DNA of 64,000 bases, from sequence record NC_007023.1; one strand, given 5' to 3'. Source of the stretch: Escherichia phage RB43. The first letter of the stretch is position 1, and each line of letters starts with the position of its first letter. The notes below the pieces were generated by a model. That model made no database searches. It was not told the origin of the DNA and was given only the letters and a program-made list of their open reading frames with translations. Shown here piece by piece: positions 6,881 to 35,348 of this stretch. Position numbers and translations under genes: made by a program.

Positions 6881-6894
6881 ATGAGGAAAATACT

Positions 6895-7221
6895 ATGAGT
6901 TGTCCAACATGGGCGCATTTTGAAAATTTGAAAGAAGGTACGCAGAAACGCGTGTATATCAATCTGGGTTGGATTCCTCCAAGTGATTTTGAATTATCCG
7001 TAATTCTGGTCAATGCCAGCAAAGAGATCAACGAAACTTTCGAATGGGAAAGACTTACTTTGCCTGTTCATCCAGGGTTCTTTATGTCCCGTGAAAAGTT
7101 CGAAGAAATGAAACGAGCGGTAGAATGTATCAATGGGTTTACTACGCCATCTCTACGTATGCACTACCGGAACCTATTCACCCTGAAAAAAGCATGGGAA
7201 ATCGCGGAGGTTGAATTATGA
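6895..7221 (+). CDS. hypothetical protein (108 aa)
   Basis: ATG 6895 with AGGAAAA RBS. Confidence 0.5.
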   Translation: MSCPTWAHFENLKEGTQKRVYINLGWIPPSDFELSVILVNASKEINETFEWERLTLPVHPGFFMSREKFEEMKRAVECINGFTTPSLRMHYRNLFTLKKAWEIAEVEL

Positions 7222-7701: not shown

Positions 7702-8279
7702 GCAAAGTAAAAGCAGTTTTCGCAGTCGGTAATGACGCATATGACGAAGATTTTGCGTTTGGCTACCAGCAGGGTTTACCGTGGGGACACTGCAAAGAGG
7801 ATTTGCAGAACTTCAAAGCAGAAACCGCAAATAGTGTCCTGATCATGGGTGCAAACACTTTTACTTCTCTGCCTGGTAAATTGCCAGGGAGAGTTCATTG
7901 CGTTCTGTCTGCATCCGGTCAACGTTTGGTAACGAAGAACGGGAATACCGCTGATTACATTATTCACTGTGGCGGGTTGTCTGCTGCAATCGACGTGATG
8001 AAAGCAACGCATCCAGATAGTGATGTGTGTATCATTGGTGGTAAGGGGTTGCTTCTGGAAGCAATCAATAATACACTGGTTGATGAATTAGTCATAACTC
8101 ACGTTTATGGACATCGTGTGTATAATGCACCAGCGTTTAAACGTGATGTTTCGTTTAGCGTCAAAGAATTCTATGATGCAGTCTTGAAGTACGGATATTG
8201 TGATTTTGAAACTATCCATATTCACGACAACGAACGCGTTGCAAAACTCGTAATTGATCGATATACGAAAAAGGCATGA
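7698..8279 (+). CDS. frd: Dihydrofolate reductase
   Basis: MSKVKAVFAVGND...GLPWG...LIMGANTF aligns with T4 Frd/DHFR motifs. Confidence 0.85.
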   Translation: MSKVKAVFAVGNDAYDEDFAFGYQQGLPWGHCKEDLQNFKAETANSVLIMGANTFTSLPGKLPGRVHCVLSASGQRLVTKNGNTADYIIHCGGLSAAIDVMKATHPDSDVCIIGGKGLLLEAINNTLVDELVITHVYGHRVYNAPAFKRDVSFSVKEFYDAVLKYGYCDFETIHIHDNERVAKLVIDRYTKKA

Positions 8280-8280
8280 A

Positions 8281-9138
8281 ATGAAACAGTATCTTGATAT
8301 TATCAGGTTGGTTCTGGCAAATGGTGTTGAATCAACCGACCGCACTGGTGTAGGTACTATCCGTATCTTTGGTGCGCAAACCCGCTGGAACCTCGCAGAA
8401 GGTTTCCCAGCAACGACCAGCAAACAGCTATTCTTCAAACCGTGTAAGCATGAATTGCAATGGTTCCTGTCCGGTTCTACTAACGTTGATGAACTACGTG
8501 AAATGACCTGGGGAATAGGAAGCGATAAACGCACTATTTGGGACGATAACTACGAAAATCAGGCTAAATCGCTGGGATACTCTCATGGTTATCTGGGGCC
8601 AATCTACGGTCATCAATGGCGTTCGTTCGGTGGTGATTTGTATGGAAATCACAGCGTTGACCAGATTGCTCGGATCGTCAACGAACTGAAAACCACACCA
8701 GACGATCGCGGGATCATCGTTTCCGCATGGAACCCTGTTGATCTGGATAAAATGGCATTGCGTCCGTGTCACTGTTTCTTCCAGTTCGTCGTAATCAACG
8801 GTAAACTGTCTCTACAGTGGTATCAGCGTTCGGTTGATGTCTTCTTAGGGTTGCCGTTCAATATCGCCTCCTACGCTCTCCTGACGCATATTATCGCTGA
8901 TATTTGCGGGTACGAAGTAGGTGATCTGGTTTGGACAGGTGGTGATGTCCATATCTACAAAAACGCAATCGAGCAAGCGAAAGAACTATTGAAGCCGGAA
9001 CGTGAACCGTTACCGCTTCCGACCCTCTACATGCCGAAGGTAAATAGCTTACTTGATTTGGATCAAGAATTCTTTGACTCCATCCATTTGAAAGATTATA
9101 ATCATCACGGCTCGCTAAAAGCAGCTATGGCAGTATAA
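8281..9138 (+). CDS. td: Thymidylate synthase (intronless)
   Basis: MKQYLDII...DRTGVGT...LRPCHCFFQFVV...QRSVDVFLGLPFNIASYALL nearly collinear with T4 Td; single uninterrupted ORF. Confidence 0.95.
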   Translation: MKQYLDIIRLVLANGVESTDRTGVGTIRIFGAQTRWNLAEGFPATTSKQLFFKPCKHELQWFLSGSTNVDELREMTWGIGSDKRTIWDDNYENQAKSLGYSHGYLGPIYGHQWRSFGGDLYGNHSVDQIARIVNELKTTPDDRGIIVSAWNPVDLDKMALRPCHCFFQFVVINGKLSLQWYQRSVDVFLGLPFNIASYALLTHIIADICGYEVGDLVWTGGDVHIYKNAIEQAKELLKPEREPLPLPTLYMPKVNSLLDLDQEFFDSIHLKDYNHHGSLKAAMAV

Positions 9139-9178: not shown

Positions 9179-11434
9179 ATGAGTGAAATTAAGACAGTAA
9201 TTAAATCTTCTGGTGTAAGTCAGCCGTTCGAAAAAGAAAAACTGTTTAAAGTCCTGAATTGGGCCAGTGTTGGAAAGAATATTGATGTTAACGCATTCCT
9301 TGAAAGTGTCGTTGACCTGCTTCGTGATGGTATGACTACCAAACAGATCCAGGGCGTAGCTATCAAATATGCAGCGGATCGTATTTCCGTAAAAGAACCA
9401 GATTGGCAGTATGTAGCGGCGAACCTCGAAATGTTCGCACTTCGTAAAACCGTTTACGGGCAATTCGACCCGATTCCATTTTACGAACACATCACTAAAC
9501 TGGTTGATGCTGGGAAGTACGACAAAGAAATCTTAACCAAATGGACTAAAGCGGATATCGAATATTTCGAAGAGAATATTAAGCACGATAAAGATTTTGA
9601 ATTCTCTTACGCTGGCGTACAGCAGTTGATCGGGAAATATCTGTTGCAGGATCGCACCAACGGTGACATCTACGAAACACCGCAATATGCGTTTATGCTG
9701 ATTGCTATGTGTCTGCATCAGGACGAACCGCGAACCCTGAGCGCATTTAATCATGTTGTCGATTTCTACAACGCAATTTCGGATCGTAAGCTGTCGTTAC
9801 CTACGCCTATTATGGCTGGTGTGCGTACTCCTACGCGTCAGTTTTCCAGTTGCGTAGTGATTGAATCAGGTGATTCACTGGGTTCTCTGAATGCTGTAAC
9901 CTCTGCGATCGTGAAGTATATTTCACAACGCGCGGGTATCGGTGTTAATGCTGGACACATTCGCGCAATGGGTTCTAAAATCCGTGGTGGTGAAGCAGTA
10001 CATACAGGCGTGATCCCGTTCTGGAAACATATTCAGACAGCGGTTAAATCCTGTTCACAAGGTGGCGTTCGTGGTGGTGCTGCAACGTTGTATTATCCGA
10101 TCTGGCATTTGGAAGTTGAAAACCTGCTGGTTCTGAAAAACAACAAAGGTGTTGAGAATAACCGTATTCGTCACCTGGATTATGGCGTTCAGCTTAACGA
10201 TTTGATGTATAAGCGTTTAATCAATAACGATTACATCACACTGTTCAGCCCTGACGTTGCAAATGATCGCCTGTATGATGCTTTCTATCAAGCTGATCAG
10301 ACTGAGTTCGAAGAACTCTATACCAGTTTGGAAAAAGACCCAACGGTACGCAAGAAACGCATTAAAGCAGCAGACTTATTCCAGTTGCTTGTTCAGGAAC
10401 GCGCACAGACCGGACGCAAATATATTTTCAACAGTCATCACGTCAACCAGCAGGGCAGTTTCTCCGTTCCTGTTCGTATGTCGAACCTTTGCTGTGAAAT
10501 TGCGATCCCAACGTCACCTCTGGATGATGACGACAAGTTAGCAGGTGAAATCGGACTGTGTACGCTTATGGCTATCGTTCTCGATAACGCTGATGTAAGC
10601 GAATTCCCAGCCCTTACACGTATTGCAGTACGCGCACTGGATAACCTGTTGGATTACCAGAACTACCCTGTTGCGGCGGCTCTGAAAGCTAAACAGCGTC
10701 GTTCTCTGGGCGTTGGTATCACCAACTATGCTTCGTGGTTGGCAAGTAACTATTGCGACTACTCAGAAGCATACGCCGGAAACGTTCATGAACTGATGGA
10801 AGCGTTTCAATATAACCTGTTGGTTGCCTCTATGGAACTGGCGAAAGAACGCGGTGCATGTGGACTGTTCCATGAAACAAAATATGCACAAGGGCTGTTA
10901 CCGATCGATTGGTACTGCAAAACCGTGGATGAACTCGCGTTACCTGTGTATAATTGCGATTGGGAATGGTTGCGCGGCGAAATCAAAAAATATGGCTTGC
11001 GTAACTCAACTCTTTCCGCTTTAATGCCATGTGAGAGTAGTTCTCAAGTAAGCAACTCAACAAACGGGATTGAACCGCCTCGCGGTCCTGTGAGTGTGAA
11101 ATCTTCGAAAGAAGGTTCATTCAACCAGGTAGTACCGAACCAGAACGATCAGATTGATTTCTATGATTATCTCTGGACAATGGCAAAACGCGGTAATAAA
11201 GGTTATCTGTCTCATGTTGCTGTTATGCAGAAGTTTGTTGATCAAGCGATCTCTGCAAACACCAACTATGATCCGGCTAACTTCCCAGATGGTAAAGTGA
11301 AATCTGAAACCATCATTGATGACCTGCTTTATGCGAACTACTACGGCGTGAAAACTCTGTATTATCACAACACCCGCGACGGTGCAGGTGAAGACGAAGC
11401 AGAAGCCGATGATTGCGTAGGCTGTAAGATTTGA
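9179..11434 (+). CDS. nrdA: Ribonucleotide reductase large subunit (class Ia)
   Basis: 751 aa; ATP-cone N-terminus, active-site NLCCEI, C-terminal CxxC tail; length near T4 NrdA. Confidence 0.95.
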   Translation: MSEIKTVIKSSGVSQPFEKEKLFKVLNWASVGKNIDVNAFLESVVDLLRDGMTTKQIQGVAIKYAADRISVKEPDWQYVAANLEMFALRKTVYGQFDPIPFYEHITKLVDAGKYDKEILTKWTKADIEYFEENIKHDKDFEFSYAGVQQLIGKYLLQDRTNGDIYETPQYAFMLIAMCLHQDEPRTLSAFNHVVDFYNAISDRKLSLPTPIMAGVRTPTRQFSSCVVIESGDSLGSLNAVTSAIVKYISQRAGIGVNAGHIRAMGSKIRGGEAVHTGVIPFWKHIQTAVKSCSQGGVRGGAATLYYPIWHLEVENLLVLKNNKGVENNRIRHLDYGVQLNDLMYKRLINNDYITLFSPDVANDRLYDAFYQADQTEFEELYTSLEKDPTVRKKRIKAADLFQLLVQERAQTGRKYIFNSHHVNQQGSFSVPVRMSNLCCEIAIPTSPLDDDDKLAGEIGLCTLMAIVLDNADVSEFPALTRIAVRALDNLLDYQNYPVAAALKAKQRRSLGVGITNYASWLASNYCDYSEAYAGNVHELMEAFQYNLLVASMELAKERGACGLFHETKYAQGLLPIDWYCKTVDELALPVYNCDWEWLRGEIKKYGLRNSTLSALMPCESSSQVSNSTNGIEPPRGPVSVKSSKEGSFNQVVPNQNDQIDFYDYLWTMAKRGNKGYLSHVAVMQKFVDQAISANTNYDPANFPDGKVKSETIIDDLLYANYYGVKTLYYHNTRDGAGEDEAEADDCVGCKI

Positions 11435-11438
11435 TAAT

Positions 11439-11457
11439 GCCCCTTCGGGGGCTTTTT
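11439..11457 (+). terminator. Rho-independent terminator
   Basis: GCCCCTTCGGGGGC hairpin followed by TTTTT. Confidence 0.65.
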
Positions 11458-11470
11458 ATAAGGTAAACTC

Positions 11471-12646
11471 ATGTTAACAGTAATGAACACAAACCCCGAT
11501 CACAAACACTTAGAACAGCCAATGTTCTTCGGTGAAGATACTGGGGTTGCCCGATATGAAGAACAAAAACATCGCGTATTCGAAACTTTGACTGAAAAAC
11601 AACTGTCATTCTTCTGGCGACCGGAAGAAGTGGATCTGTCGATCGACCGTATGCAGTATGCAAAAATGCCGGAACACGAGAAAATCATTTTTGATTCTAA
11701 CCTGCAATATCAAACCCTGTTAGATACCATTCAGGGACGTGGCCCTAACCTGGCGTTTCTCCCGATTGCCTCTGATGTTTCAATGGAAACGTGGATCGAA
11801 ACATGGGCTTTCAGTGAAACAATTCATAGCCGCAGTTATACACACATTCAGCGTAACTTGCATATCGACCCGGCTAAAGAGTTCGACAAAATCCTTCGTA
11901 ACGAAGCGATTATGAAACGTTCGGCTTCAATGACAAAATATTACGATGACCTGATCGCAGAATGTCATGAACTGAAAAACATCGTTCTCAAGATCGAAAT
12001 GATGACATCCCACGGATACCCAGACGAATCGATCGCTGAATACGAACAGAAACGCAAAGAGCAAATGCGCAAATGTAAGGTTGCTCTTTATCTGTGTATG
12101 CACGCTGTCAACGCTCTGGAAGCGATTCGTTTCTATGTCTCGTTTACCTTTACGTTCAACTTTGCCGAACAGGGCAAGATGGAAGGTAACGCAAAGATCA
12201 TGCGTCTGATTGCCCGTGATGAAGCACTTCATCAGAAAGGTACTCAAAGCAAGATCCGACTCTGGCAGATGGGTAAAGATGACCCAGAAATGGCAGAAAT
12301 CGCGTATCAGTACGAAGAAGAAGCAACACAGATTTTCCTCGAAGTTTACGAGCAGGAAAAAGAATGGGCTGAACACTTATTCAGTATTGGTGATGTTGAC
12401 GGCGTGACACTGAAAAGTACAATCGCCTATATCGAACACTTAACCGACCAACGTATGCGAGCGGTTGGGTTACAGTCTCCGTTTAAACCGAGTCCTAACC
12501 CGTATCCGTGGATGAACAAATGGTTGAAGTCTGACAACGTTCAGGTAGCCCCGCAAGAGGTTGAAGTAAGTTCTTACCTGGTTGGCAACCTCAACACCGA
12601 GATCAGCGACGAAGCCTATGCAAAATGGCGACAAAAATACGCGTAA
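11471..12646 (+). CDS. nrdB: Ribonucleotide reductase small subunit (intronless)
   Basis: 391 aa; diiron/tyrosyl radical R2 fold features; uninterrupted ORF. Confidence 0.9.
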   Translation: MLTVMNTNPDHKHLEQPMFFGEDTGVARYEEQKHRVFETLTEKQLSFFWRPEEVDLSIDRMQYAKMPEHEKIIFDSNLQYQTLLDTIQGRGPNLAFLPIASDVSMETWIETWAFSETIHSRSYTHIQRNLHIDPAKEFDKILRNEAIMKRSASMTKYYDDLIAECHELKNIVLKIEMMTSHGYPDESIAEYEQKRKEQMRKCKVALYLCMHAVNALEAIRFYVSFTFTFNFAEQGKMEGNAKIMRLIARDEALHQKGTQSKIRLWQMGKDDPEMAEIAYQYEEEATQIFLEVYEQEKEWAEHLFSIGDVDGVTLKSTIAYIEHLTDQRMRAVGLQSPFKPSPNPYPWMNKWLKSDNVQVAPQEVEVSSYLVGNLNTEISDEAYAKWRQKYA

Positions 12647-12655
12647 GGACATAAC

Positions 12656-13213
12656 ATGATTGATGCGATTCCCGTTTATACGGGAGTCCATCACAATCTA
12701 TACGCATACCTGGCGGGTTGTGTTGATTGTGATGGATGGATTAGTGAAAAAGGAAAGAATGGTTATCTGGTTGGGCTTACACAGCATATTCAACTATGGG
12801 ATGATATGGTTAGCATTCAATCTGATTTGATTAACGATGGTGTTGATGCAAAATTATATGAAAGAACCAGTAGAACAGGATTAGGTAATACGTTGATGTG
12901 CAACCTAATTATTCAAAAATCATCGGATCTCTTGATTCTGTTACCGAGAATCATTCCATACCTTCGATTTAAAAAGCAAAAAGCAGTTGACGCATATTTT
13001 AATTTGTGTAAACATTCAGATCTTAATGCAAGTTCATCCGATAATGATATGAAAGGAAGTAAACGAAAGTATTGGAAGCCGGAAGAAATATCCGAACTAA
13101 TTCGTTTACATTCGGAGGGTTACAACAACCCAGCGATAGGGATTAAAATGAATCGTTCTACCGATTCAATAAGTCATAAGTTGCATCGGTTGGGTATCAT
13201 GAGAAACGAATGA
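12656..13213 (+). CDS. Free-standing LAGLIDADG-type homing endonuclease with C-terminal HTH-like region
   Basis: Single LAGLIDADG motif YAYLAGCVDCDGWI near N-terminus; I-CreI-like size. Confidence 0.65.
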   Translation: MIDAIPVYTGVHHNLYAYLAGCVDCDGWISEKGKNGYLVGLTQHIQLWDDMVSIQSDLINDGVDAKLYERTSRTGLGNTLMCNLIIQKSSDLLILLPRIIPYLRFKKQKAVDAYFNLCKHSDLNASSSDNDMKGSKRKYWKPEEISELIRLHSEGYNNPAIGIKMNRSTDSISHKLHRLGIMRNE

Positions 13214-13620
13214 TGGAATCGAAAGTTTATAGAATGTCTCTTGACAAATGCGGTCGAATAGACCGCAGTTTTATCAAGTGTGGTGAGTTAAGAAATTGCG
13301 TTTACTGTATTGAAATCGACGGCGTGATCGTGTATGTTGGTAAAGCAAAAGACATGTGGAAGCGATTAGATACGTACAGGAATTCAAAATACTGGAGGGA
13401 AGCAAACCCCAGCAACATTTTGAAAACCGCACGTCTGGAAATGGCAATCAAAAAACGTAAGCGTGTGAATCTCATTGTGACAACACACGATGAAGAGACA
13501 TATCATGATTATGAAATCAACATGATCCGAAAAATCAATCCTGAATGGAACAAACAGCATTATGACAAAGCTAACAAAAAACCAGAAAACACTCTTCAAC
13601 CAATTGATGAAGCTGTGTAA
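13210..13620 (+). CDS. denA: Endonuclease II (GIY-YIG family)
   Basis: 136 aa, same length as T4 DenA; GIY-YIG-like VYCIEIDGVIVYVGKAKDMWKRLDTYRNS. Confidence 0.8.
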   Translation: MMESKVYRMSLDKCGRIDRSFIKCGELRNCVYCIEIDGVIVYVGKAKDMWKRLDTYRNSKYWREANPSNILKTARLEMAIKKRKRVNLIVTTHDEETYHDYEINMIRKINPEWNKQHYDKANKKPENTLQPIDEAV

Positions 13621-14719
13621 CGAAACCGAATGCTTTTACTTTATTGATCAAAAAACCGTAATGCAGACCCACGTTCGCATTTTCAACTATCGTATGGCGA
13701 GTTATTCCGATTGGTTGAAACCTGGTGCGCTGGAATGTCGCGGCATTATGTTTGCAATGGATGGGGATACCCCCGTAAAACTCGTCAGCCGTCCTATGGA
13801 GAAGTTTTTCAACTACGCCGAGGTAAAGGCATGGGAAGCACTTAAAGAGGCTCCTGTGACGATTGGCGACACCGTAGTTGATGTGATGATTAAGGAAGAT
13901 GGTTCCCTGATCTCTACATTCTGTGATTCCGGCTATCTGGGCGTTAAGTCAAAAGCGTCTGTACAGTCTGAACAGGCTATGGACGCAATGAGCGTGATCC
14001 AAACTAACCGCGCATTGTTCGAACGCCTTACAGAACTGGTTCGCGATGGATTCACCGTCAACATGGAATACGTCGCACCAACTAACCGTATTGTAATTGG
14101 TTATCAAGACCCTGCTGTTGTGATTCTGAACATTCGCAACAACGATACAGGTGAATACGTACCGTATCAGGATATTTTTGCTGATGCTGTGTTGCGTCCT
14201 TACCTGGTTGAACGTGAGAAAATCGAAATCACCGATCTGGATGCGTTTATTGCAGATGCGTACACGAAAGAAGGTTTCGAGGGATACGTAATCAAGACGA
14301 ACAAAGGTTTTGTGAAAGCAAAAACAAACTGGTACGTGAATCTTCACCGCACGAAGGATAGCATCACCAATAACAAAGATTTGTTCTTAAATATTGTTGA
14401 TAACACAGTTGATGACCTGAAACAATTATTCCTGGATGATACATATTCACTCAAGAAAATTGATGCGTTTGAAACTATGTTCCTCGATAGTCTGAATCGC
14501 CTGTCTGCAAAAGCATTCAAGGCGATTGAAGATACTAAAGGATTGTCCCGTAAGGATTACGCAATCAAACTGAGTTCGGATTTAACCCCAGATGGGCGCA
14601 TTATCTTTGGCCCGATGATGCGATATTTCGATGATACCGATAAACAAAAATTGGTTGATAACATCGTTTCTCTGATGGTTAAAAATTACGAACAGTTCAT
14701 ACCGGAAGAGTATAAATGA
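13562..14719 (+). CDS. rnlA: RNA ligase 1 / tail fibre attachment protein gp63
   Basis: KEDGSL adenylation motif; N-terminus LFNQLMKLC...YSDWLKPGALECRGIMF aligns with T4 RnlA; start ambiguous (13562 or 13607). Confidence 0.85.
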   Translation: MTKLTKNQKTLFNQLMKLCNETECFYFIDQKTVMQTHVRIFNYRMASYSDWLKPGALECRGIMFAMDGDTPVKLVSRPMEKFFNYAEVKAWEALKEAPVTIGDTVVDVMIKEDGSLISTFCDSGYLGVKSKASVQSEQAMDAMSVIQTNRALFERLTELVRDGFTVNMEYVAPTNRIVIGYQDPAVVILNIRNNDTGEYVPYQDIFADAVLRPYLVEREKIEITDLDAFIADAYTKEGFEGYVIKTNKGFVKAKTNWYVNLHRTKDSITNNKDLFLNIVDNTVDDLKQLFLDDTYSLKKIDAFETMFLDSLNRLSAKAFKAIEDTKGLSRKDYAIKLSSDLTPDGRIIFGPMMRYFDDTDKQKLVDNIVSLMVKNYEQFIPEEYK

Positions 14720-15042
14720 ACATACCAGCTTTACCAAAGTTAAGTTCTTTGGTATGGCCTGTGATTGTGGGGCTATCTTTGATAGCCCTTTTTTATATTG
14801 CAGTCGATACCAAAATAGAAAACAGACAATTGTCTAATGATATCAAAGCATTACAAGCTGATATCAAGAAAGTCAAAGAGACAAACAACACCAACACAGT
14901 GATATACGTAGAGCAAAAGGCGAAGGATCAGCAACTGGTGAAAGATGCGGGACGTAAAGATCTGTTATTCAAAAAGCCAGGACTGATTGAAATCAAGATC
15001 AACAAATCATTCGAAGAGTATATGGAGGAATTCGATAAATGA
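14716..15042 (+). CDS. i-spanin (Rz-like; T4 PseT.3 equivalent)
   Basis: N-terminal TM helix then coiled-coil periplasmic domain; position upstream of o-spanin and pseT as in T4. Confidence 0.65.
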   Translation: MNIPALPKLSSLVWPVIVGLSLIALFYIAVDTKIENRQLSNDIKALQADIKKVKETNNTNTVIYVEQKAKDQQLVKDAGRKDLLFKKPGLIEIKINKSFEEYMEEFDK

Positions 15043-16574: not shown

Positions 16575-16840
16575 ATGAAACAAAAAATCCGAGTGATATA
16601 GTTGAGGTTCATGAAGCATGGATTCTCACTGATAAAGATAAGGTTCGGTATGGCTGTCTGTTCGGTTTAGTGTGTTTAGACCCAGAAGTAGACATAATGA
16701 CTAGCCCGATTGTATCTTATAGTCATCCAGCGAACACGGAATTTGTTGAAGTGATTACGCGATCTGGTAGCACGTATCGCGTAGTAAATCCAGATTCTGA
16801 TTTCATGAAGCAGTTATTAACCGTGATGGATGACAAATGA
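16571..16840 (+). CDS. hypothetical protein (89 aa)
   Basis: ATG 16571 overlapping upstream stop (ATGA). Confidence 0.5.
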   Translation: MNETKNPSDIVEVHEAWILTDKDKVRYGCLFGLVCLDPEVDIMTSPIVSYSHPANTEFVEVITRSGSTYRVVNPDSDFMKQLLTVMDDK

Positions 16841-17037
16841 AAAATGTTATCGTAGCGGCAGTGATAATGTGCATCATATCCATTATACTTGTTATAATGA
16901 GCACACCAAACAAACCGACTTCTAAGATAACACCATATCAGTCGAGCAAGACAGAAGAAAGCTCTTGCTCGATGCCAATGTGTGAATCGTTGGGTGGTCA
17001 TGATGCAATTGCTTTACAAGTTATGTTTGGAGATTAA
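16837..17037 (+). CDS. small membrane protein (66 aa)
   Basis: Hydrophobic N-terminal helix VIVAAVIMCIISIILVIM. Confidence 0.5.
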   Translation: MKNVIVAAVIMCIISIILVIMSTPNKPTSKITPYQSSKTEESSCSMPMCESLGGHDAIALQVMFGD

Positions 17038-17562
17038 ATGAAATTACTTCATATGATCCGCGCCATAAAGCAAAGTCAGGGTTCTCGATGTATATCGAAC
17101 CGTGTAGGCGCTGTTATTGTAATGAATGGGCGTGTGGTTTCACAGGGTACGAATAATACGGTTGATTCTGATTGTCGATGCGCCGATCATAACAATCATA
17201 TGCTGAATGATGAAGGTAAGTTGAAAGCAATTCATCGACCAGAACATTCAGCATGGTCGAACGATAACGAAATTCACGCTGAAATGAAAGCGTTGCTAAG
17301 TGCTCATACTAATGGTATCATGCTTAATAACGCAGAGTTATACACAACCGCTTCACCGTGTCCGAACTGTGCAAAACACATCGAATGGTATGTTGCGATT
17401 GGTGCAATAACTTCTGTATATTTCCTCGATAAATACGATCGTGGTAATGATGAATGGATTTCGCGTTTGCAAAAATATGGTTGCAAAGTGGAACAAATTA
17501 AACGGGAAAAGTTGGAACCTCATATCAACTTTTCTAATGTAGTGTTTAACAACAATGAGTAA
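17038..17562 (+). CDS. cd: dCMP deaminase
   Basis: Cytidine/deoxycytidylate deaminase zinc motifs HAEMKAL and PCPNCAKHI. Confidence 0.9.
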   Translation: MKLLHMIRAIKQSQGSRCISNRVGAVIVMNGRVVSQGTNNTVDSDCRCADHNNHMLNDEGKLKAIHRPEHSAWSNDNEIHAEMKALLSAHTNGIMLNNAELYTTASPCPNCAKHIEWYVAIGAITSVYFLDKYDRGNDEWISRLQKYGCKVEQIKREKLEPHINFSNVVFNNNE

Positions 17563-18171: not shown

Positions 18172-18248
18172 GGCCCTTTAGCTCAATTGGTAGAGCGAAC
18201 CCCTCATAAGGGTGTGGTTTCCGGTTCGAGTCACGGAAGGGGCCACCA
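18172..18248 (+). tRNA. tRNA with anticodon CAU (Met or Ile2), atypical T-arm
   Basis: 7-bp acceptor stem GGCCCTT/AAGGGCC, D-arm GCTC-AATTGGTA-GAGC, anticodon loop CTCATAA, T-loop TTCGAGT, 3' CCA; T-stem needs removal of A18233 to be canonical. Confidence 0.65.
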
Positions 18249-18407
18249 AATTAGGGTGCTGGCGCAATGCCGTTAAATGGTTCCGAATATGCAACCGTAT
18301 CTTATGGGATCGGCTCTGTTGGTATCGGGTAATAGGTTCCCTGGAATGCAGGGTGAAGTAAAGAAACTCCCAGCCCACAAATTAAATTAAACTTAAAGAG
18401 AAATGAA

Positions 18408-18836
18408 ATGAATACATCTGGTCTGATTACCCTGTTTAAACTGGCTCCGAAAATGCGTGATATTCTTGTGCATCCTCATGGACACTATAACGAAGAACTC
18501 ATGCGACTATTTCAAGAAGAAATTCCTGATTTTGAACGCGTGTTTGGTGATGCGCTTACCGCATATTCTACACAGGGTTATCTTGCAGCACCGTTAGTAA
18601 ACAACCCCGAAGAATATCGACGGACTTATTTCAACTGGCAGATTATTACACTGATTAAGCGTAGCGGCATTACCCCGACAAACTACAAGCTTTTAACAGT
18701 TGACGCGTCGAAATTTTTGATCCAATATATGATCACGGGTGGATTCAAAAACGAACTCGTACCAGTTGATAATGATGCGTTGCTGGAAGAATTCGACGAC
18801 GCAAAACATTTAATCGATGCAATGAAATCTATGTGA
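18408..18836 (+). CDS. hypothetical protein (142 aa)
   Basis: ORF with AGAGAAATGAAATG start context. Confidence 0.55.
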   Translation: MNTSGLITLFKLAPKMRDILVHPHGHYNEELMRLFQEEIPDFERVFGDALTAYSTQGYLAAPLVNNPEEYRRTYFNWQIITLIKRSGITPTNYKLLTVDASKFLIQYMITGGFKNELVPVDNDALLEEFDDAKHLIDAMKSM

Positions 18837-18843
18837 GGTTTAT

Positions 18844-19125
18844 ATGCAGTTTCGTGAAAAGATGCTATATCATCCAGACGGACATTTTGAGCAAGTATTT
18901 GTTCCGATGTCTCCGGTTAAATTCAAAGAACCCTACGGCGTTACTTTTAAAGAGTGGAAATCAAACCTCCATAAAGACGACTACCGGAAGAAATTCAAAT
19001 TTAATGAATGCTACGTTGAAGATGATCCCTATGATCAGGACGTGTGCGGGGAAACAAACCCAATCATTGAACGAACACCGGAAGAACTTTACGAATCTGT
19101 AATAACCGCAGCATACGAAATTTAA
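18844..19125 (+). CDS. hypothetical protein (93 aa)
   Basis: ORF with GAGG RBS. Confidence 0.55.
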   Translation: MQFREKMLYHPDGHFEQVFVPMSPVKFKEPYGVTFKEWKSNLHKDDYRKKFKFNECYVEDDPYDQDVCGETNPIIERTPEELYESVITAAYEI

Positions 19126-20545: not shown

Positions 20546-20829
20546 ACTTACAACATGAAAGACCTGGTTGCTTCAAAACTCGTCGTGAAGCCCGTGCGTA
20601 TGTTCTGGCGGCTGGTAAAAATACCTCTGCTGTAATCGACCTGGGTACTGATAAAGAGGTTGGTGCTCGTTGGGCCGCTGTTGTGGTTATCGCTGTCCCT
20701 GTTACCCCTGCTAAAACTCTGGTTCTGGGTGCTCGCAATAGCGAAACTTTGAACACCAGCACTTGCAATAACAGAGGAGTTCATAGTGTCAAAGTGTTCA
20801 AACGTCGCAGCATTGGTGCGAGGGCTTAA
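20540..20829 (+). CDS. hypothetical protein, apparently frameshifted (about 96 aa if one A is added to the AAAA run near 20575)
   Basis: ATG 20540 gives 31 codons; protein-like reading continues in the -1 frame to TAA 20827-20829 with no in-frame start of its own. Confidence 0.4.
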
Positions 20830-21038
20830 TGATGGTAAATTTCAAAGCAGGTGATCTTATTTCACCAAAGAACCGAGAATGCATTAAAGAGTTCCCATAT
20901 TGGGAAAATCTGGAGATTGTATCTTTCTGCTCTGATTTGTGTGAAGCGGTAGTACGTCAAAAGGATGGTTGGATGTGTAATCATTTTAACCTCGACCCAG
21001 AATTTGGTGAAGAGTTCGAAGTTGTTGGGAGTGTATGA
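20829..21038 (+). CDS. hypothetical Cys-containing protein (69 aa)
   Basis: ATG overlapping upstream stop (TAATGATG). Confidence 0.5.
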   Translation: MMVNFKAGDLISPKNRECIKEFPYWENLEIVSFCSDLCEAVVRQKDGWMCNHFNLDPEFGEEFEVVGSV

Positions 21039-21039
21039 A

Positions 21040-21244
21040 ATGAGCAAAACCAAAGAATTAGAACAGAAAGTATTGGGGTTCATGAGTAACAGCGAAGATC
21101 GCTATGCGAAACACCTCATTGTTGAACTGATCACCGAGTACGCCGCCGTGACAAAGAGATAAAGATCTGAAAGATGAAAAGCGTGTGGTTCGCGAGGTTG
21201 TTGTAGAACCAGTTGAATACAACTTTGGCCCTGGTGGTGCATGA
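21040..21244 (+). CDS. hypothetical protein, apparently split at an AAA run near 21155 (about 67 aa if fused)
   Basis: ATG 21040; stop at 21160-21162 but protein-like reading continues in +1 frame to TGA 21242-21244. Confidence 0.4.
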
Positions 21245-21471
21245 TGCGATATGGTAAAAAAGACTATGTTCTTATAGTCGGTCAGCAATACGTAAAGCGT
21301 GATTTCTTCGGCGAACTGTTCCTTTCGAACAATCCTGAATTGATGTACTCATTCGAAACGGAAGAAGACGCGTATATTGCTAAGAACAACAGCAGAAATG
21401 CAGATATTCGTAACTTTGCTCGCGTATACGAGCGCAACACTTTAATAACTTACGAGGCATGTGATCAATGA
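21241..21471 (+). CDS. hypothetical protein (76 aa)
   Basis: ORF with ATGA overlaps on both sides. Confidence 0.5.
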   Translation: MMRYGKKDYVLIVGQQYVKRDFFGELFLSNNPELMYSFETEEDAYIAKNNSRNADIRNFARVYERNTLITYEACDQ

Positions 21472-21698
21472 AATACGTTTTAGAATATTGCGAACATGAG
21501 TTCACCGAAGACATGATGAACAAAATGCGGGTGTATAACCAAAATATTACCAGCATCACCCCTGTTACAGCTTGTCGTGAATTCGTGGGTTATTCGTTTA
21601 CGATTTACACAAATTCAGAAGATGACGCAACCGCATATCTGAAAAGCATTAATGCAATCTTCGACAAATTCGAAAAAGTATGGAAGGTAGGTTACTAA
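21468..21698 (+). CDS. hypothetical protein (76 aa)
   Basis: ORF MKYVLEYCEHEF... Confidence 0.5.
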   Translation: MKYVLEYCEHEFTEDMMNKMRVYNQNITSITPVTACREFVGYSFTIYTNSEDDATAYLKSINAIFDKFEKVWKVGY

Positions 21699-21861
21699 TG
21701 AATTTTATCAACGCAGCATACAAGAAATTTTCGACGCGCTGGAAGCCTGGAAGACACGCACAGACGTTTCTATCACTTCGGCATCCAACGGTACTACATA
21801 CGACCGTTACGACCCTTCTCGTGGCTTACACAAGCCGTATGAGACTAAGGAATCAAAATGA
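21698..21861 (+). CDS. hypothetical protein, apparently frameshifted near AAATTTT at about 21690-21710 (about 54 aa if fused)
   Basis: ATG 21698 (MNFINAAYKK) then protein-like -1 frame EIFDALEAWKTRTDVSITSASNGTTYDRYDPSRGLHKPYETKESK ending TGA 21859-21861. Confidence 0.35.
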
Positions 21862-22010
21862 AGTATTACGGGTTTAAAACGAGTCATTACGGTAAAGCGT
21901 ACCGAACTGATAACATCGATCGCAAACGTCCGTATTATGATTCTCTGGTACGTGCAGGTCGTAAACGTGCTCGCCAGGAAGGGAAGAAGGAAGGAGAAGA
22001 CCGTGGTTGA
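21858..22010 (+). CDS. small basic protein (50 aa)
   Basis: AAGGAA RBS before ATG 21858. Confidence 0.5.
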   Translation: MKYYGFKTSHYGKAYRTDNIDRKRPYYDSLVRAGRKRARQEGKKEGEDRG

Positions 22011-22155
22011 TAATTCAGATCTGAATGAAGCACTTCGTTCTATTACTGCGAATACTAAACCGAAAAAGAGAACAGGAGAAATCATCTTTTTATGTGTATG
22101 GTATTTTGTGTTTAGCTTTGTTGTTGGCGCTGCATTTGCGAAATGGTTCTTATAA
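22003..22155 (+). CDS. small membrane protein (about 50 aa, GTG start)
   Basis: AGGAGA RBS before GTG 22003; hydrophobic C-terminal helix IIFLCVWYFVFSFVVGAAFA. Confidence 0.4.
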   Translation: MVDNSDLNEALRSITANTKPKKRTGEIIFLCVWYFVFSFVVGAAFAKWFL

Positions 22156-23073: not shown

Positions 23074-23586
23074 TTGACAGAACTTGATGAACTCATTGAC
23101 AGTTTACGAATAGATTTCGAAGCTGGTAAGTGTTTCTGGGCTAAGAAGATAACCAAAAAGACTGTTGTTGGAGAAGAAGCGGGTTCCGTCCGTCCCGATG
23201 GTTATTGTAGAATCCGGTTCAAAGGAAAATATTACTACCGTCATCGAGTCATCTTTTATGCACGGAATAGGTTTCTTCCTGACGTTGTTGACCACATAAA
23301 AGAGGTTGACAATGGCGACGGTGTAGGTAATATTCAGGCAGCAACTCATCAACAGAATATGATGAAACAAAATATCAATTCGTTGAATAAATCTGGTTGC
23401 CCTGGTGTATCATGGGATACACAAAGAAACAAATGGCTTTCCACTATTAAAAAGGATGGAAAGAATATCTATATAGGTCGGTTTGCGTCTTATGATGACG
23501 CGGTTACTGCCCGAATTAACAAAGAAAAAGAACTATTTGGAAACTTTTATAATGAGCACAAACGCAAAGCCTGTAATTCTGACTGA
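23074..23586 (+). CDS. HNH homing endonuclease with C-terminal AP2 DNA-binding domain
   Basis: HNH motif region GYCRIRFKGKYYYRHRVIFYA...DHI...N...THQQN; AP2 domain GVSWDTQRNKWLSTIKKDGKNIYIGRFASYDDAVTARINKEKELFG; TTG start. Confidence 0.8.
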   Translation: MTELDELIDSLRIDFEAGKCFWAKKITKKTVVGEEAGSVRPDGYCRIRFKGKYYYRHRVIFYARNRFLPDVVDHIKEVDNGDGVGNIQAATHQQNMMKQNINSLNKSGCPGVSWDTQRNKWLSTIKKDGKNIYIGRFASYDDAVTARINKEKELFGNFYNEHKRKACNSD

Positions 23587-30636: not shown

Positions 30637-31722
30637 ATGAAAATCAAAGTATTACAAGACACTGTGCAATCATTTGCTGAAATAAAAAATGCTGGCATCC
30701 CCTCTGGGGGTGCTACAACCACGAAAAACGCATTGAGTCAACCTATTGTAACAGCGGAATTTCCTTCCCAACGTGCAGCAGGTATTGATAACGCGTACAA
30801 CGCATCAAGCCTGTATAATAACGGCTTGCTGTTTACTGCATATGATTTCACTGGTGGTCTTGCACCAGGTAGCAAAGATAACTATCGTTCATTACGTCAA
30901 GCAGCACAGAACGCAAAACAGATATTAAGCGCTAACACAGGTAATGTTCGATATAAACAGGTTTTGAATACCCGTACTATGGGTACATTGAACCCGATTT
31001 GTCAAATACTTTTACCTCGAAGCCTTAACGACAACGAAGTAAACAGCCACCGTTACCAGGATGCAACCGATAGTATCGTTGCTAAAGGTTTGTCCCGTGC
31101 GGTGTCTAACGTTATCTGGGGTGCTGTAGAATCGGTTTCTGGTGGTATTCTGGCAGACCGTAGGGAAGCGATCGATATTGGTACGAAAGCAGCGTTTCAA
31201 GGCTCCGATAAACGTACAAAGATGTATTACAATACATTCGTAATCGAAAGCCGTTATGATCTGCTTGAACTGATTAAAATCTATTACCTGTTTACTGTTC
31301 TGGGTTATGGTACTACGTCAGGTGGTACACCTGCTGAACTGGCTGGCCTTGTTAAAACGGCGTATAACAATACAGCGTCTAAAGTGGCTAACGTGTTTGC
31401 ACCATCCAGCAACCAGACAACAGCAAGCGATTTCAATGACAGTATCGGTGATCAGATTGTTGACTTCGTATCGAACGTTGAGGTTATTAAATCGCCTCCA
31501 GTATGGTTTATTCGTGATTTCCAGACAGGTGACAGTCTACGCTTCCCGCATTCTACATTCGGGCCAGCAGGTATTACCAGCGTTCGTTTCGGGCGTACTA
31601 TGGATAATATCGTAAATACATTAAGAGAGTCACCCAATACACCGATATCCGTTGAAATCGAAATTCAGTTTATGGAATTGATCGACATGCGTCAAGATTC
31701 TATTTTCGATGTTCAATACTAG
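30637..31722 (+). CDS. 48: Baseplate tail-tube junction protein gp48
   Basis: 361 aa (T4 gp48 364 aa); position between 29 and 54. Confidence 0.7.
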   Translation: MKIKVLQDTVQSFAEIKNAGIPSGGATTTKNALSQPIVTAEFPSQRAAGIDNAYNASSLYNNGLLFTAYDFTGGLAPGSKDNYRSLRQAAQNAKQILSANTGNVRYKQVLNTRTMGTLNPICQILLPRSLNDNEVNSHRYQDATDSIVAKGLSRAVSNVIWGAVESVSGGILADRREAIDIGTKAAFQGSDKRTKMYYNTFVIESRYDLLELIKIYYLFTVLGYGTTSGGTPAELAGLVKTAYNNTASKVANVFAPSSNQTTASDFNDSIGDQIVDFVSNVEVIKSPPVWFIRDFQTGDSLRFPHSTFGPAGITSVRFGRTMDNIVNTLRESPNTPISVEIEIQFMELIDMRQDSIFDVQY

Positions 31723-31730
31723 GGGGAATA

Positions 31731-32594
31731 ATGTTTTATAGCGTAGATGAATTCTTATCTGGAATGGCAAACAAAGATTTTCAACGCAGCAACTTGTTTA
31801 GCGTTGTGTTCGCCACGAGTCCAGCATCACGCATTCTTGATAGCACGATCGGAAGTATTCGAGATACGTTGATTGACGGCACAATGAGTTCAATCAACGC
31901 GAACAACCCGAACGAGTTCATGAACGCTATCACAGGGGGTGTAAGCAAATTATTCAGCTATACAGTTGATAAAGCGATTATGTCCCTCAACAAAACAGGA
32001 TTCAGTAAAATTATGGGGGCGTTAAGCCCTCGCCTTGTTACTTCCCTGTTTGGTGATAGCGTTTACGGACAACTGTTGACAGAATTCCGTGATAAAATGA
32101 TGTACAATATGGGGTTGAGTATCGTCGGTGTTCAGTTGCCCGGTAAAACACTGGGATATGAATATGTTTATAACGGCGGTGTACCCCAGATCCGATTTAC
32201 CCGACCGGAGAATGGAGAGCTATCTCTTACATTCCGTGTTGATTCAGAAGCACGTAACCTGAAAGTGTTTAACGAATGGATATCCGCTATTCGTGATGAC
32301 ATTACAGGGCAGTTTGCTTTCATTGATGAAGTATCCAGCGCGATCCAGGTTAACTTACATAACCGTGATGGTGTTCCGCATAGCACATACATATTCCAGA
32401 AGTGTTTACCTGTTAAGGTCAGCAGCCCTGAATTAAGCTATGAAACAAACAACGAAATCTGGACATTTACGGTTGACTTCGCATATAAAACTGCGTGGAT
32501 CGTAGAAGCAGACAAAGAAGGTTGGGACGGATTCAAACAATCAATGATTGAAGGTGCAGCGGTTGCCCTTCGTGGTGTGGTATCAGGACAATAA
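31731..32594 (+). CDS. 54: Baseplate tail-tube initiator gp54
   Basis: FQRSNLFSVVFATSP..., LSLTFRVDSEARN, VNLHNRDGVPHS, SSPELSYE align with T4 gp54. Confidence 0.85.
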   Translation: MFYSVDEFLSGMANKDFQRSNLFSVVFATSPASRILDSTIGSIRDTLIDGTMSSINANNPNEFMNAITGGVSKLFSYTVDKAIMSLNKTGFSKIMGALSPRLVTSLFGDSVYGQLLTEFRDKMMYNMGLSIVGVQLPGKTLGYEYVYNGGVPQIRFTRPENGELSLTFRVDSEARNLKVFNEWISAIRDDITGQFAFIDEVSSAIQVNLHNRDGVPHSTYIFQKCLPVKVSSPELSYETNNEIWTFTVDFAYKTAWIVEADKEGWDGFKQSMIEGAAVALRGVVSGQ

Positions 32595-32612
32595 GGGGCG
32601 TAAGCCCCTTTT
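32595..32612 (+). terminator. Rho-independent terminator
   Basis: GGGGCGTAAGCCCC hairpin followed by TTTT. Confidence 0.6.
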
Positions 32613-32621
32613 GAGGTTAAT

Positions 32622-33365
32622 ATGATTGATGTAATTCGCGTCAAACTCCCTTGTGGGGTAAAACGTTTTCCGATGTTCACTGTACGCGATCAGTTGAGTT
32701 TCTTGCTCACCAGCGCGGATATGGAAGGGAAAACATTAACAGAACAGCAGCAGATCCTTGATGAAATTTTAGATATTCTTTATCCGGGTTATTCAAAAAC
32801 CGAACAGGAAAATATATTCACTAAGGTTTATTGTGTATCGTTTGGTAAGAACGTCATTAAGATCCGAATCAAAAACAAAGACAGTTACGCAGAAACATTC
32901 ATGCAGGTCAAAGACTATGAATTGCAGAATGAATATGCTCTTGATGATTCTCTGACCCTGGGGTTCCGGTTCCCAAAACACAGAAAGAGCAGTGAAGAAT
33001 TGTTCCTTGAATGTATCCAGTATGTCAAGCAAAATGATACCCGTTATGAATGGGAATCACTCGACGAAGACACGAAGAATGCTATACTTGATTTGGTATC
33101 TATCACCGATATGGAAAACATTGTGAAGATGTTACGTAAATCCTGTCATGTTGTCGTTCGCGACCTTGAATTCAGTGATTTGCTTACCCTTTACAAGATC
33201 CTGTTTAACAAATCAGAATTGAATGAGTTCTTCAAGACAAACTATTTGTTAAATAAGAATGAAGTACATATTGAACCTATCATGAATGCAAGCCCGATGG
33301 AACGGTCAATTTACGTTGCAATACTGGCAGAAGATTTAAAACAGAGACAAAATACAAATGCGTAA
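32622..33365 (+). CDS. 51: Baseplate hub assembly protein gp51 (putative)
   Basis: 247 aa (T4 gp51 249 aa); called from size and neighbourhood. Confidence 0.45.
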   Translation: MIDVIRVKLPCGVKRFPMFTVRDQLSFLLTSADMEGKTLTEQQQILDEILDILYPGYSKTEQENIFTKVYCVSFGKNVIKIRIKNKDSYAETFMQVKDYELQNEYALDDSLTLGFRFPKHRKSSEELFLECIQYVKQNDTRYEWESLDEDTKNAILDLVSITDMENIVKMLRKSCHVVVRDLEFSDLLTLYKILFNKSELNEFFKTNYLLNKNEVHIEPIMNASPMERSIYVAILAEDLKQRQNTNA

Positions 33366-33915
33366 ACATACTCCAAAGCATATCCAAAAATATAATGTGA
33401 CTTATCGCCCGTTGACTATTGGTGATGTGAATGACACGGATAACTTCATTTTAGAAGGGAAGGTGTTTAAGCATCAACGCGATTATGTGTATCTTATGGC
33501 CTTGTTTGATTCAATCAATAAAGATACTGTCGACCTACAAATCAAGTGTCCTGATTGCGGTGAACTGATTAAGTTCACGTTAAACCGTCATCATATCATG
33601 ATTGACGAGTTCGAAGAAAAACTCTTCGGTAATGAAATTAAAATTGCGGTCAGCCCGTATGTTACCGGAAAAGAAGAATTACCGGATCTGATTAAGTTTG
33701 TTGTCATCGACGGCGAACAAATCTTATGGGAAGACTGCAAAGAGTCAGAAAAGGAAGCGGTGTTAGATAGCATCGACTATCCGGTCTTTAAATCGATAAA
33801 TACCGCGCTGGAATCCCCAGCAATGGTCGCAAACATTCCGGTCGGGTGTTCGTGTGGCTATAAACACATAGTCTCTCTGCGTGGCTTAGAGGCGTTTTTA
33901 AAGGTGGTTGGATAA
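33358..33915 (+). CDS. 26: Baseplate hub subunit gp26 (putative), zinc-ribbon containing
   Basis: 185 aa with CPDCG...CSCGYKH cysteine pairs; adjacent to gp25. Confidence 0.45.
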   Translation: MRKHTPKHIQKYNVTYRPLTIGDVNDTDNFILEGKVFKHQRDYVYLMALFDSINKDTVDLQIKCPDCGELIKFTLNRHHIMIDEFEEKLFGNEIKIAVSPYVTGKEELPDLIKFVVIDGEQILWEDCKESEKEAVLDSIDYPVFKSINTALESPAMVANIPVGCSCGYKHIVSLRGLEAFLKVVG

Positions 33916-34308
33916 ATGGCTGTTAACCTTCGCTTACTATACAGCGATATCGATCCGAACCTTACGAAAGATTGGAATAAAGATGTTGCCGCCTCGAAAG
34001 GGGCGGCAGCAGTAAAGAACAGTCTGATCGGTATCGTTACTACCCAGAAAGGCACACGTCCTTTCGATAGCAATTTTGGATGTGAGATCGGGGAACAGAT
34101 ATTCGAAAACATGAACCCGCTAACAGCGGAATCAGTACGAACTTCGATTACCTCCGCAATACGAACCTACGAACCCCGCGTTTATAACCTTAATGTTGAA
34201 GTGATCCCGCAGTATGACGAAAACGCGATTACTGTTACGATTTACTACAGCATCATTGATGAACCGGAAGAAGTAGAAAAAATCAAACTCCAGCTTTCAT
34301 CCTCATAA
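33916..34308 (+). CDS. 25: Baseplate wedge subunit gp25
   Basis: LYSDIDPNLTKDWNKDV...GTRPFDSNFGCEIGEQIFENMNPLTAESV...YEPRV...IKLQLSSS near-collinear with T4 gp25. Confidence 0.9.
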   Translation: MAVNLRLLYSDIDPNLTKDWNKDVAASKGAAAVKNSLIGIVTTQKGTRPFDSNFGCEIGEQIFENMNPLTAESVRTSITSAIRTYEPRVYNLNVEVIPQYDENAITVTIYYSIIDEPEEVEKIKLQLSSS

Positions 34309-34310
34309 CA

Positions 34311-34333
34311 AAAAGCCCCTTTCGGGGCTTTTC
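34311..34333. terminator. Bidirectional terminator at strand switch
   Basis: AAAAAGCCCCTTTCGGGGCTTTT flanked by A-run and T-run between convergent genes. Confidence 0.7.
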
Positions 34334-34831: not shown

Positions 34832-34841
34832 GATAAGCCCC

Positions 34842-35072
34842 TTATTTTTTCAGGTTGATTAACCAAGACGGTTGGGTTTCTAAACTAACCTCTTTCCAAG
34901 CATATGCAACACTATAACCGGAATACGTCTGACATACAACAGCATTTTCATTTAAATATTTCACTTTGTGATCTGCCTCTTGTTCATTCAGGGCAGCACA
35001 TACGATATTCTTTTCATACACTCCGCCGTTTGGCTGGATAATTGTTTCTTCAATCAGATAAACGCTGTTCAT
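34842..35072 (-). CDS. hypothetical protein (76 aa)
   Basis: ORF. Confidence 0.5.
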   Translation of the reverse strand: MNSVYLIEETIIQPNGGVYEKNIVCAALNEQEADHKVKYLNENAVVCQTYSGYSVAYAWKEVSLETQPSWLINLKK

Positions 35073-35281: not shown

Positions 35282-35319
35282 TTTCTCGTTCCTTTTGTCT
35301 GTTCCGTTTCAACACCCCT

Positions 35320-35348
35320 AATATACAAAAACCCCTCGCGATATGCAA
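35320..35348 (-). promoter_or_regulatory. Conserved promoter cassette (TTGCAT-N17-TATATT)
   Basis: Minus-strand CCCCCTTGCATATCGCGAGGGGTTTTTGTATATT then leader GTTGAAACGGAACAGACAAAAGGAAC. Confidence 0.55.

Follow-up and report, generated by a model that had tools for sequence, protein, structure and literature searches.

The 64,000-nucleotide stretch of the Escherichia phage RB43 genome analyzed here (record NC_007023.1; hereafter the window) carries, between nrdB and denA, an open reading frame (ORF) with an ATG start, RB43ORF066w (12656..13213, + strand, 185 aa; the name follows the KP27 annotation). RB43ORF066w is a free-standing gene that probably encodes a LAGLIDADG homing endonuclease, with a single motif and similarity to I-CreI and I-MsoI, and that probably spreads by intronless homing. 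In sequence comparisons, its cassette shows the pattern of a selfish gene that was transferred recently. The RB43 records HE981739 and HE858210 (Pseudotevenvirus) show 100% identity over 11400-14800. An earlier reading of the window, made from the letters and their translations without database searches (hereafter the sequence-only reading), had singled out the same ORF as a LAGLIDADG-type gene.

The family to which the protein belongs provides the strongest sequence matches. While a word-indexed homologue search returned 2 proteins, an exhaustive hidden Markov model search returned 823 relatives, approximately 50 of which are full-length proteins (175-200 aa) with the two-domain layout of RB43ORF066w. 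A profile constructed from 45 of these full-length relatives, the set to which all family statistics below refer, matched I-MsoI with E-values of 5.9e-20 (tandem chain) and ~1e-10 (monomer), I-CreI with an E-value of ~1e-8, and I-CvuI with an E-value of 1.2e-8. These matches span profile positions 5-115, which is the entire core. Pfam domain LAGLIDADG_1 is matched by 24 of the 45 members and LAGLIDADG_3 by 18, and a phmmer search of PDB sequences with RB43ORF066w alone returned weak matches (E 3.3e-5 to 0.1), every one of which is a LAGLIDADG protein. The corresponding PHROG, 16747, is without an assigned function and its family comprises ~50 clusters at 50% identity.

The single N-terminal motif reported in the sequence-only reading is present at residues 16-29 (YAYLAGCVDCDGWI), with the sequence LAGCVDCDG at residues 19-27, in which A20, D26, and G27 are invariant among the family members. 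It lies at the C-terminal end of the predicted helix alpha1, and D26 is the conserved acidic residue ahead of the final Gly. The remaining invariant columns are Q43, K106, and W140. In the profile alignment to I-CreI chains, D26, Q43, and K106 align with I-CreI D20, Q47, and K98, and Q43 and K106 stand opposite the TQ and LK(Q) positions in the I-CreI-derived chains. D20 of I-CreI is the metal-binding Asp, with Q47 and K98 as the active-site Gln and Lys, and on the basis of this alignment the active site of RB43ORF066w looks intact. The ratio of non-synonymous to synonymous divergence (dN/dS) between RB43 and KP27 is 0.078, and the protein is therefore under purifying selection.

Structure prediction points to the same family. 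An AlphaFold2 model from a 3-sequence alignment was discarded (predicted local distance difference test, pLDDT, of 48.8), and the prediction was repeated with the 45-sequence alignment (pLDDT 91.5; predicted template modelling score, pTM, 0.75). The repeated model has an alpha-beta-beta-alpha-beta-beta-alpha topology (H13-26, E27-32, E36-44, H45-60, E66-74, E77-86, H89-102), with the four strands that would form the DNA-binding sheet, plus alpha4, followed by a linker of lower confidence and, at residues 142-178, by a bundle of three helices. A Foldseek search against the PDB placed LAGLIDADG proteins in all of the best 47 matches at a probability of 1.00, with the homodimeric I-CvuI, I-MsoI, and I-CreI on top; the next three matches listed are engineered I-OnuI and I-CreI variants, which are LAGLIDADG proteins as well. 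The fold matches in BFVD are phage LAGLIDADG proteins, the top match being a homologue from phage ukendt that UniProt names 'Homing endonuclease LAGLIDADG domain-containing protein'. The profile matches to I-MsoI, I-CreI, and I-CvuI, the predicted topology, and the Foldseek result (47/47) together support the LAGLIDADG fold that the sequence-only reading had supposed.

The C-terminal tail, which had been described as helix-turn-helix-like, is consistent with that description through a sub-threshold match to HTH_38 (residues 136-178, E 9e-5) and through the three-helix bundle in the model, the helices of which (142-153, 158-164, and 169-178) have a pLDDT >90. Among the family members, helix-turn-helix (HTH) matches include HTH_38 in 12, GcrA in 5, Myb in 3, and sigma-70 region 4 in 3, and W140 belongs to this domain. 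Outside of the family, many large and unrelated proteins contain 3-11 copies of this HTH module in tandem. Four metagenome proteins of 446-1570 aa (P0005, P0028, P0045, and P0051) carry such tandem modules and match HTH_23, HTH_38, Myb, and GcrA, and one of them has TFIIB repeats in addition. In a review by Stoddard (PMC3943268), the LAGLIDADG enzymes of organelles and archaea are described as compact, while the phage enzymes of the HNH, GIY-YIG, and EDxHD types have an elongated form with NUMOD modules tethered to them. Going by the model, RB43ORF066w unites a compact LAGLIDADG core with a tethered module. As combinations of LAGLIDADG and NUMOD are already listed in Pfam-based surveys (PMC11270868), this architecture is not called new.

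The distribution of the gene is sporadic. At the nrdB-denA locus it is present in 10 of the 172 phage records that share the locus (~6%), namely two records each of RB43, RB16, and KP27, along with R2_1, R6_1, CPRSA, and CPRSB. The ORF is not fixed in all relatives; in close relatives without it the slot holds different cassettes or ~30-50 bp, and at least four states are recorded (Table 1). The left edge of the slot is the nrdB stop, which the two endonuclease alleles have as GCG TAA GGA and the remaining alleles as GC(T/G) TGA TTGT, and the right edge is the denA start or a position a few codons inside denA. The HNH-AP2 and LAGLIDADG cassettes have the left junction TAAGGA-ATAA-ATG in common. 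Comparison of the junction among relatives, which had been suggested along with the sequence-only reading, revealed clean breakpoints against IME-CF2, Miller, and KP15. On the nrdB side, blastn homology with Miller and IME-CF2 stops at 12642, and KP27 and KP15 are 99.3% identical as far as 2 nt ahead of the nrdB stop and 99.1% identical from the denA start, such that only the cassette has been exchanged. In the public IME-CF2 record, denA is annotated from position 1898 only, which yields a truncated 96-aa product (L001 1778-2188); a full-length frame (MTVNTYRMSLDKCGRIDRSF...) runs from approximately 1781 and the record is probably mis-annotated.

Judged from the sequences, the family behaves the same at unrelated loci of unrelated phages as at nrdB-denA and appears to be mobile there. 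In Certrevirus and Phapecoctavirus, free-standing homologues with 36-41% identity are flanked by small genes that are unrelated. Approximately 15 of the 73 Phapecoctavirus records that share the flanks carry the gene, and most phapecoctaviruses with 98-99% identical flanks are without it. The copy in ukendt (L007 3980-4523) is frameshifted into two annotated ORFs, ukendt_29 and ukendt_28, and because of this split looks like a decaying copy. A free-standing relative with 33% identity is located beside clamp-loader genes in an environmental T4-like contig, and a scan of IMG/VR with the family alignment added one informative locus, L011.

These distributions bear on the possibility that RB43ORF066w encodes an active nuclease kept mainly for cutting competing related phages, through marker exclusion or partial exclusion, to the benefit of RB43-type phages more than to the spread of the gene. 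[quoted passage not shown] A role in exclusion is indistinguishable from homing in that one break gives both outcomes, but the occurrence in only 6% of records and the frameshifted relative fit a selfish cycle of gain, decay, and loss better than a competitive weapon that is fixed, and exclusion as the main role is considered quite improbable.

Recent transfer is indicated by the comparison of RB43 with RB16. The two phages are 100% identical over an 892-bp tract that covers the last 48 bp of nrdB, RB43ORF066w, and the first 281 bp of denA, while across nrdB-pseT outside of this tract the identity is 86.7%. Between RB43 and Miller, there are 40 substitutions over nrdB-rnlA (11471-14719), 39 of which fall at 13257-13476 in denA and 1 outside of the patch, in addition to the exchanged cassette, and the comparison with IME-CF2 over the same genes has a similar pattern. 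The flanks in Miller and IME-CF2 are 98-99.9% identical to those in RB43. These alignments indicate that a patch of ~830-890 bp, made up of the ORF plus ~270 bp from the start of denA, has moved between otherwise diverged backbones, with the signature expected of gene conversion with co-conversion of the flank. Composition and substitution rates add support. RB43ORF066w (GC 0.369; GC at third codon positions, GC3, 0.317) has a lower GC3 than the neighboring genes (0.41-0.48). Synonymous divergence (dS) between RB43 and KP27 is 0.69 for the ORF, less than half of the value for nrdB (1.53), and the first ~100 nt of the ORF (bin 12668-12767) are the best conserved stretch against KP27 (95%).

As a control, ~48 kb of RB43 and RB16 were compared, in which just one other block of comparable identity occurs (~31645-36938), so tracts of this kind are rare without being peculiar to the ORF. 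That block lies in a region of baseplate genes, has identical runs of up to 1160 bp against a background of ~91%, and is annotated in RB16 without an endonuclease. Plain mosaicism of the genomes may therefore also account for the tract around RB43ORF066w, as another block exists, but this tract is short and centered on the ORF. Segments of RB43 that have no blastn match in the aligned RB16 sequence are 6886-7217, 16587-17038, 18386-19122, 20766-22150, 23077-23567, and 43263-44019, and may represent further variable cassettes or endonuclease genes.

A related alternative holds that the protein has the LAGLIDADG fold but does not drive its own transfer; the cassette would then have been moved as a passenger by homologous recombination between co-infecting phages or by the breaks of other endonucleases, for example the HNH-AP2 enzymes found in this slot, and the protein would be a sequence-specific DNA-binding regulator. 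This would accommodate the second, larger near-identical block of RB43 and RB16 without a recognized endonuclease gene, the presence of several unrelated cassettes in the slot (including the non-nuclease DUF4326), the fusion of a DNA-binding-type HTH to the core, and a 22-bp pseudo-palindrome in the 5' end of the gene that is a possible operator. However, the Asp, Gln, and Lys of the putative active site are invariant in 45 diverse members, which would not be expected of a derivative that only binds DNA. The identical tract is also tightly centered on the ORF, and family members show polymorphism at other, unrelated loci of unrelated phages. A passive passenger is accordingly viewed as an unlikely explanation.

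The pseudo-palindrome (GATTCCCGT-TTAT-ACGGGAGTC, 12667-12688) is held within a stable hairpin at the 5' end of the ORF. This hairpin is identical in KP27, is located within an N-terminal extension that is absent from most family members, and may be a translational attenuator or operator. Palindromes in the same 9+4+9 format occur 22 times in the window compared to 8.4 times in shuffled sequences; therefore, the format is not rare and the pseudo-palindrome stays a lead. No counterpart of it occurs in the endonuclease-less alleles that were compared. A second, terminator-like hairpin (TGCGGTC-GAATA-GACCGCA followed by GTTTTAT) is located at 13249-13267, 40 nt into denA, with a stem that is kept in RB16, IME-CF2, and Kp_GWPR59 (one loop change) and not in Miller, KP27, or KP15. 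It was rejected as a target site of the endonuclease, as it occurs in alleles with and without the gene. Changes within denA that might confer 'immunity' are likewise not supported, as the denA substitutions private to RB43 and RB16 are not found in KP27, the denA of which is that of KP15. Given that KP27 and KP15 are the same outside of the cassette, the target would be expected inside the swapped segment or at its borders if KP15-type genomes are recipients.

Several observations weigh against an active homing endonuclease at this locus. On its own, the RB43ORF066w sequence does not reach the Pfam cut-offs, with 19.3 bits against the 22.5-bit cut-off for LAGLIDADG_3 (E 1.4e-3) and 22.6 bits against the 27-bit cut-off for HTH_38 (E 9e-5), and there is no obvious equivalent of I-CreI R51. 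Comparisons of the junctions, palindromes, and denA yielded no candidate target site that separates endonuclease-bearing from endonuclease-less alleles. The HNH-AP2 endonuclease in the slot of other phages could drive the exchange there, and the second near-identical block of RB43 and RB16, in which no endonuclease gene is recognized, implies that general recombination alone can make such tracts.

If RB43ORF066w is a homing endonuclease, the following sequence of events can be proposed. The protein would be translated from the nrdA-nrdB-denA transcript by means of its own Shine-Dalgarno sequence, which is seen 6 nt ahead of the ATG. As a single motif implies a dimer, two cores of ~111 residues would pair through their LAGLIDADG helices, as in I-CreI, and each of the two predicted active sites (D26 with Q43 and K106) would bind Mg2+, such that both strands could be cut across the minor groove. 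Enzymes of the I-CreI type act as homodimers on a pseudo-palindromic site of ~22 bp, and their Mg2+-dependent double-strand cleavage leaves 4-nt 3' overhangs. The two tethered HTH domains may stand in for the C-terminal helices of I-CreI and may add DNA contacts outside of the central site, in the manner of NUMOD modules in phage HNH and GIY-YIG enzymes. During mixed infection, if a co-infecting relative is without the gene, the enzyme would cut its nrdB-denA region, and repair from the endonuclease-bearing genome would copy the cassette with a variable length of flank; the swapped cassette and the co-converted tract are the visible parts of this process and the initiating break is the presumed part.

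A more specific, and doubtful, extension of this mechanism would regard the family as a distinct compact class of LAGLIDADG enzymes, in which a dimeric saddle of ~111-aa cores with Myb/HTH arms reads a symmetric site of >30-40 bp and competes for the slot with the HNH-AP2 and DUF4326 cassettes. Two known modes by which homing endonucleases recognize long sites would thereby be united, with the dimeric core cutting a central palindrome and the HTH arms reading the flanking DNA. The pseudo-palindrome at the 5' end of the gene would, under the same proposal, be an operator or attenuator that is bound but left uncleaved. The autorepression of I-TevI is an analogue for such an arrangement.

The surroundings of the gene are summarized in Table 1. 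Upstream, the gene order is td, nrdA, and nrdB, and downstream it is denA, rnlA, two spanin genes, and pseT. The ATG of RB43ORF066w is 9 nt past the nrdB stop, and its TGA stop overlaps the denA ATG (ATGA, 13210-13213), so the insertion does not uncouple denA. No sigma-70-like site is located directly upstream of the ORF and a promoter scan found nothing promoter-like between nrdB and the ORF, from which co-transcription with nrdB would follow. A T4-type late promoter (TATAAATA) is not found near RB43ORF066w, the single match in the window being at 50292.

Table 1. Features of the nrdB-denA region of RB43 (window coordinates) and recorded states of the slot in related phages (coordinates of the respective locus)
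Feature	Position	Strand	Details
td	8254..9138		single ORF; Thymidylat_synt profile 1-266/266
nrdA	9179..11434		single uninterrupted ORF
nrdB, ribonucleotide reductase small subunit	11471..12646	+	PF00268 E 6.9e-39, profile 8-281/281; uninterrupted
Putative transferred (gene-conversion) tract	12599..13490		892 bp, 100% identical to RB16
Segment without counterpart in IME-CF2 (52 bp there)	12643..13227	+	blastn breakpoints 12642, 13228
Shine-Dalgarno AAGGA	12645..12649	+	6 nt ahead of the RB43ORF066w ATG
Putative free-standing LAGLIDADG-HTH endonuclease gene	12656..13213	+	RB43ORF066w, 185 aa
Stable hairpin, codons 3-13 of the ORF	12662..12692	+	RNA fold z = -2.7
Predicted nuclease core, residues 13-123	12692..13024	+	alpha1-beta1-beta2-alpha2-beta3-beta4-alpha3-alpha4; AlphaFold2, profile alignment, invariant columns
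LAGLIDADG motif, residues 16-29 (YAYLAGCVDCDGWI)	12701..12742	+
Linker, residues 124-135	13025..13060	+	pLDDT 76-79 in blocks 121-140; length varies in the family (gapped columns)
Predicted C-terminal three-helix HTH (Myb / HTH_38 / GcrA-like), residues 136-180	13061..13195	+
denA (endonuclease II)	13210..13620	+	phrog_1111 'endonuclease' E 6.9e-44; DenA endonuclease II in RB16, KP27, Miller annotation
Slot state: LAGLIDADG-HTH gene			RB43, RB16, KP27
Slot state: 179-aa HNH_3+AP2 endonuclease	L003 1758-2297		Kp_GWPR59
Slot state: 103-109-aa DUF4326 protein	L002 1719-2030, L008 3907-4236		Miller, KP15
Slot state: ~30 nt with TGnTATAAT, extended -10-like TGTTATAAT	L001 1748-1780		IME-CF2

This anatomy is relevant to a further alternative, that RB43ORF066w encodes an RNA maturase or is what remains of an ORF once carried by an intron. 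Sequence and fold matches do include the bI3 maturase, and the td and nrdB genes of T4 contain introns. In RB43, td and nrdB are intron-less, as had been stated in the sequence-only reading; both are continuous ORFs with full-length profile matches, as is nrdA, and Rfam (gathering thresholds) detected no group I intron in the 64-kb window. The description of RB43ORF066w as free-standing likewise agrees with the absence of intron-sized room around the ORF, which starts 9 nt past the nrdB stop and overlaps denA. The intact catalytic residues also speak against a maturase or intron remnant, an origin that is effectively refuted by this anatomy. The sole Rfam match in the window is one tRNA gene (18172-18244); in RB16, the equivalent position carries two tRNAs (Met and Gly). 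The td ORF as called by the program begins at a TTG, with an ATG nine codons later (MKQYLDII...; window 8254-8280), and this ATG, at which the Pfam match begins, is the likely true start.

Other intergenic positions differ between RB43 and RB16. The nrdA-nrdB gap, which is the position of mobE in T4, contains a 'putative homing endonuclease RB16 3' in RB16 (L004 11-499) and spans only 36 nt in RB43 (11435-11470), where a GC-rich hairpin of the terminator type occupies 11439-11452. Four further annotated endonuclease genes of RB16 in the span that matches the window are also absent from RB43.

RB43ORF066w can be compared to several described systems. The homodimeric, single-motif enzymes I-CreI, I-MsoI, and I-CvuI originate from group I introns in algal chloroplast 23S rRNA genes and resemble the RB43 protein in the N-terminal position of the motif, the alpha-beta-beta-alpha-beta-beta-alpha core, and the correspondence of D26/Q43/K106 to D20/Q47/K98. 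However, sequence identity is only 15-20% and the RB43 gene stands by itself in an operon of the phage instead of being encoded within an intron. The RB43 core is also shorter (~111 aa), ending after alpha4, with the linker and HTH in place of the C-terminal helices and loop of I-CreI, and is without an obvious equivalent of R51. The Seg (GIY-YIG) and Mob (HNH) endonucleases of T4, such as SegF, SegG, and MobE, are similar in being intergenic, free-standing, located among nucleotide-metabolism genes, and sporadic. They also transfer with co-conversion of the flank, and combine a nuclease domain with a tethered DNA-binding module (mechanism in PMC2993671). They differ in catalytic family, and for RB43ORF066w both cleavage and marker exclusion are putative.

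The HNH-AP2 endonucleases of RB43, RB16, and RB49 offer a closer parallel in location. A member in Klebsiella phage Kp_GWPR59 occupies the same slot, with the same left junction (GCG TAA GGA-ATAA-ATG) and an overlap with denA, and both proteins are two-domain proteins of ~180 aa. The nuclease (HNH_3) and DNA-binding (AP2) domains are nevertheless unrelated to those of RB43ORF066w. Other phage LAGLIDADG genes belong to the same catalytic family and are either intein-borne (in NrdA, helicase, and terminase) or free-standing (in actinophages). Among those described, the majority lie within inteins or contain two motifs, while RB43ORF066w is a free-standing, single-motif gene with an HTH fused to the nuclease core.

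It should be noted that the gene has appeared in the literature before. Nolan et al. (2006) listed 'RB43ORF066w, LAGLIDADG endonuclease, E 0.15' among putative mobile elements, but did not discuss it in the text (PMC1524935). RB43ORF066w is now well supported as a member of the LAGLIDADG family, for which the 2006 entry was a weak earlier hint, and it is not a new kind of system. A 2010 survey of endonuclease genes in T4-related phages has no LAGLIDADG column and assigns four genes to RB43 (1 mob-like and 3 HNH-AP2; PMC2993671), in agreement with the claim of the sequence-only reading that the family is uncommon in T4-like phages. The RB16 record lists five other putative homing endonucleases in the span, with the RB43ORF066w homologue as 'conserved hypothetical', and a comparison of KP27 with KP15 recognized, as endonuclease genes unique to KP27, only two of the HNH type (PMC5219037). 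As the standard survey has only GIY-YIG and HNH genes, elements of this type are under-counted by single-sequence domain searches.

The assignment provides a function for PHROG 16747 and for genes annotated as 'hypothetical' in RB16, KP27, and several Phapecoctavirus and Certrevirus genomes. The short core with a tethered HTH is of possible interest for the engineering of meganucleases. RB43 and Miller are almost isogenic outside of the ~830-bp patch, which makes the pair a ready system in which the intronless homing of a LAGLIDADG gene and the accompanying co-conversion could be followed in crosses. With RB43ORF066w, the LAGLIDADG family joins the homing-endonuclease repertoire of the T4-related phages.

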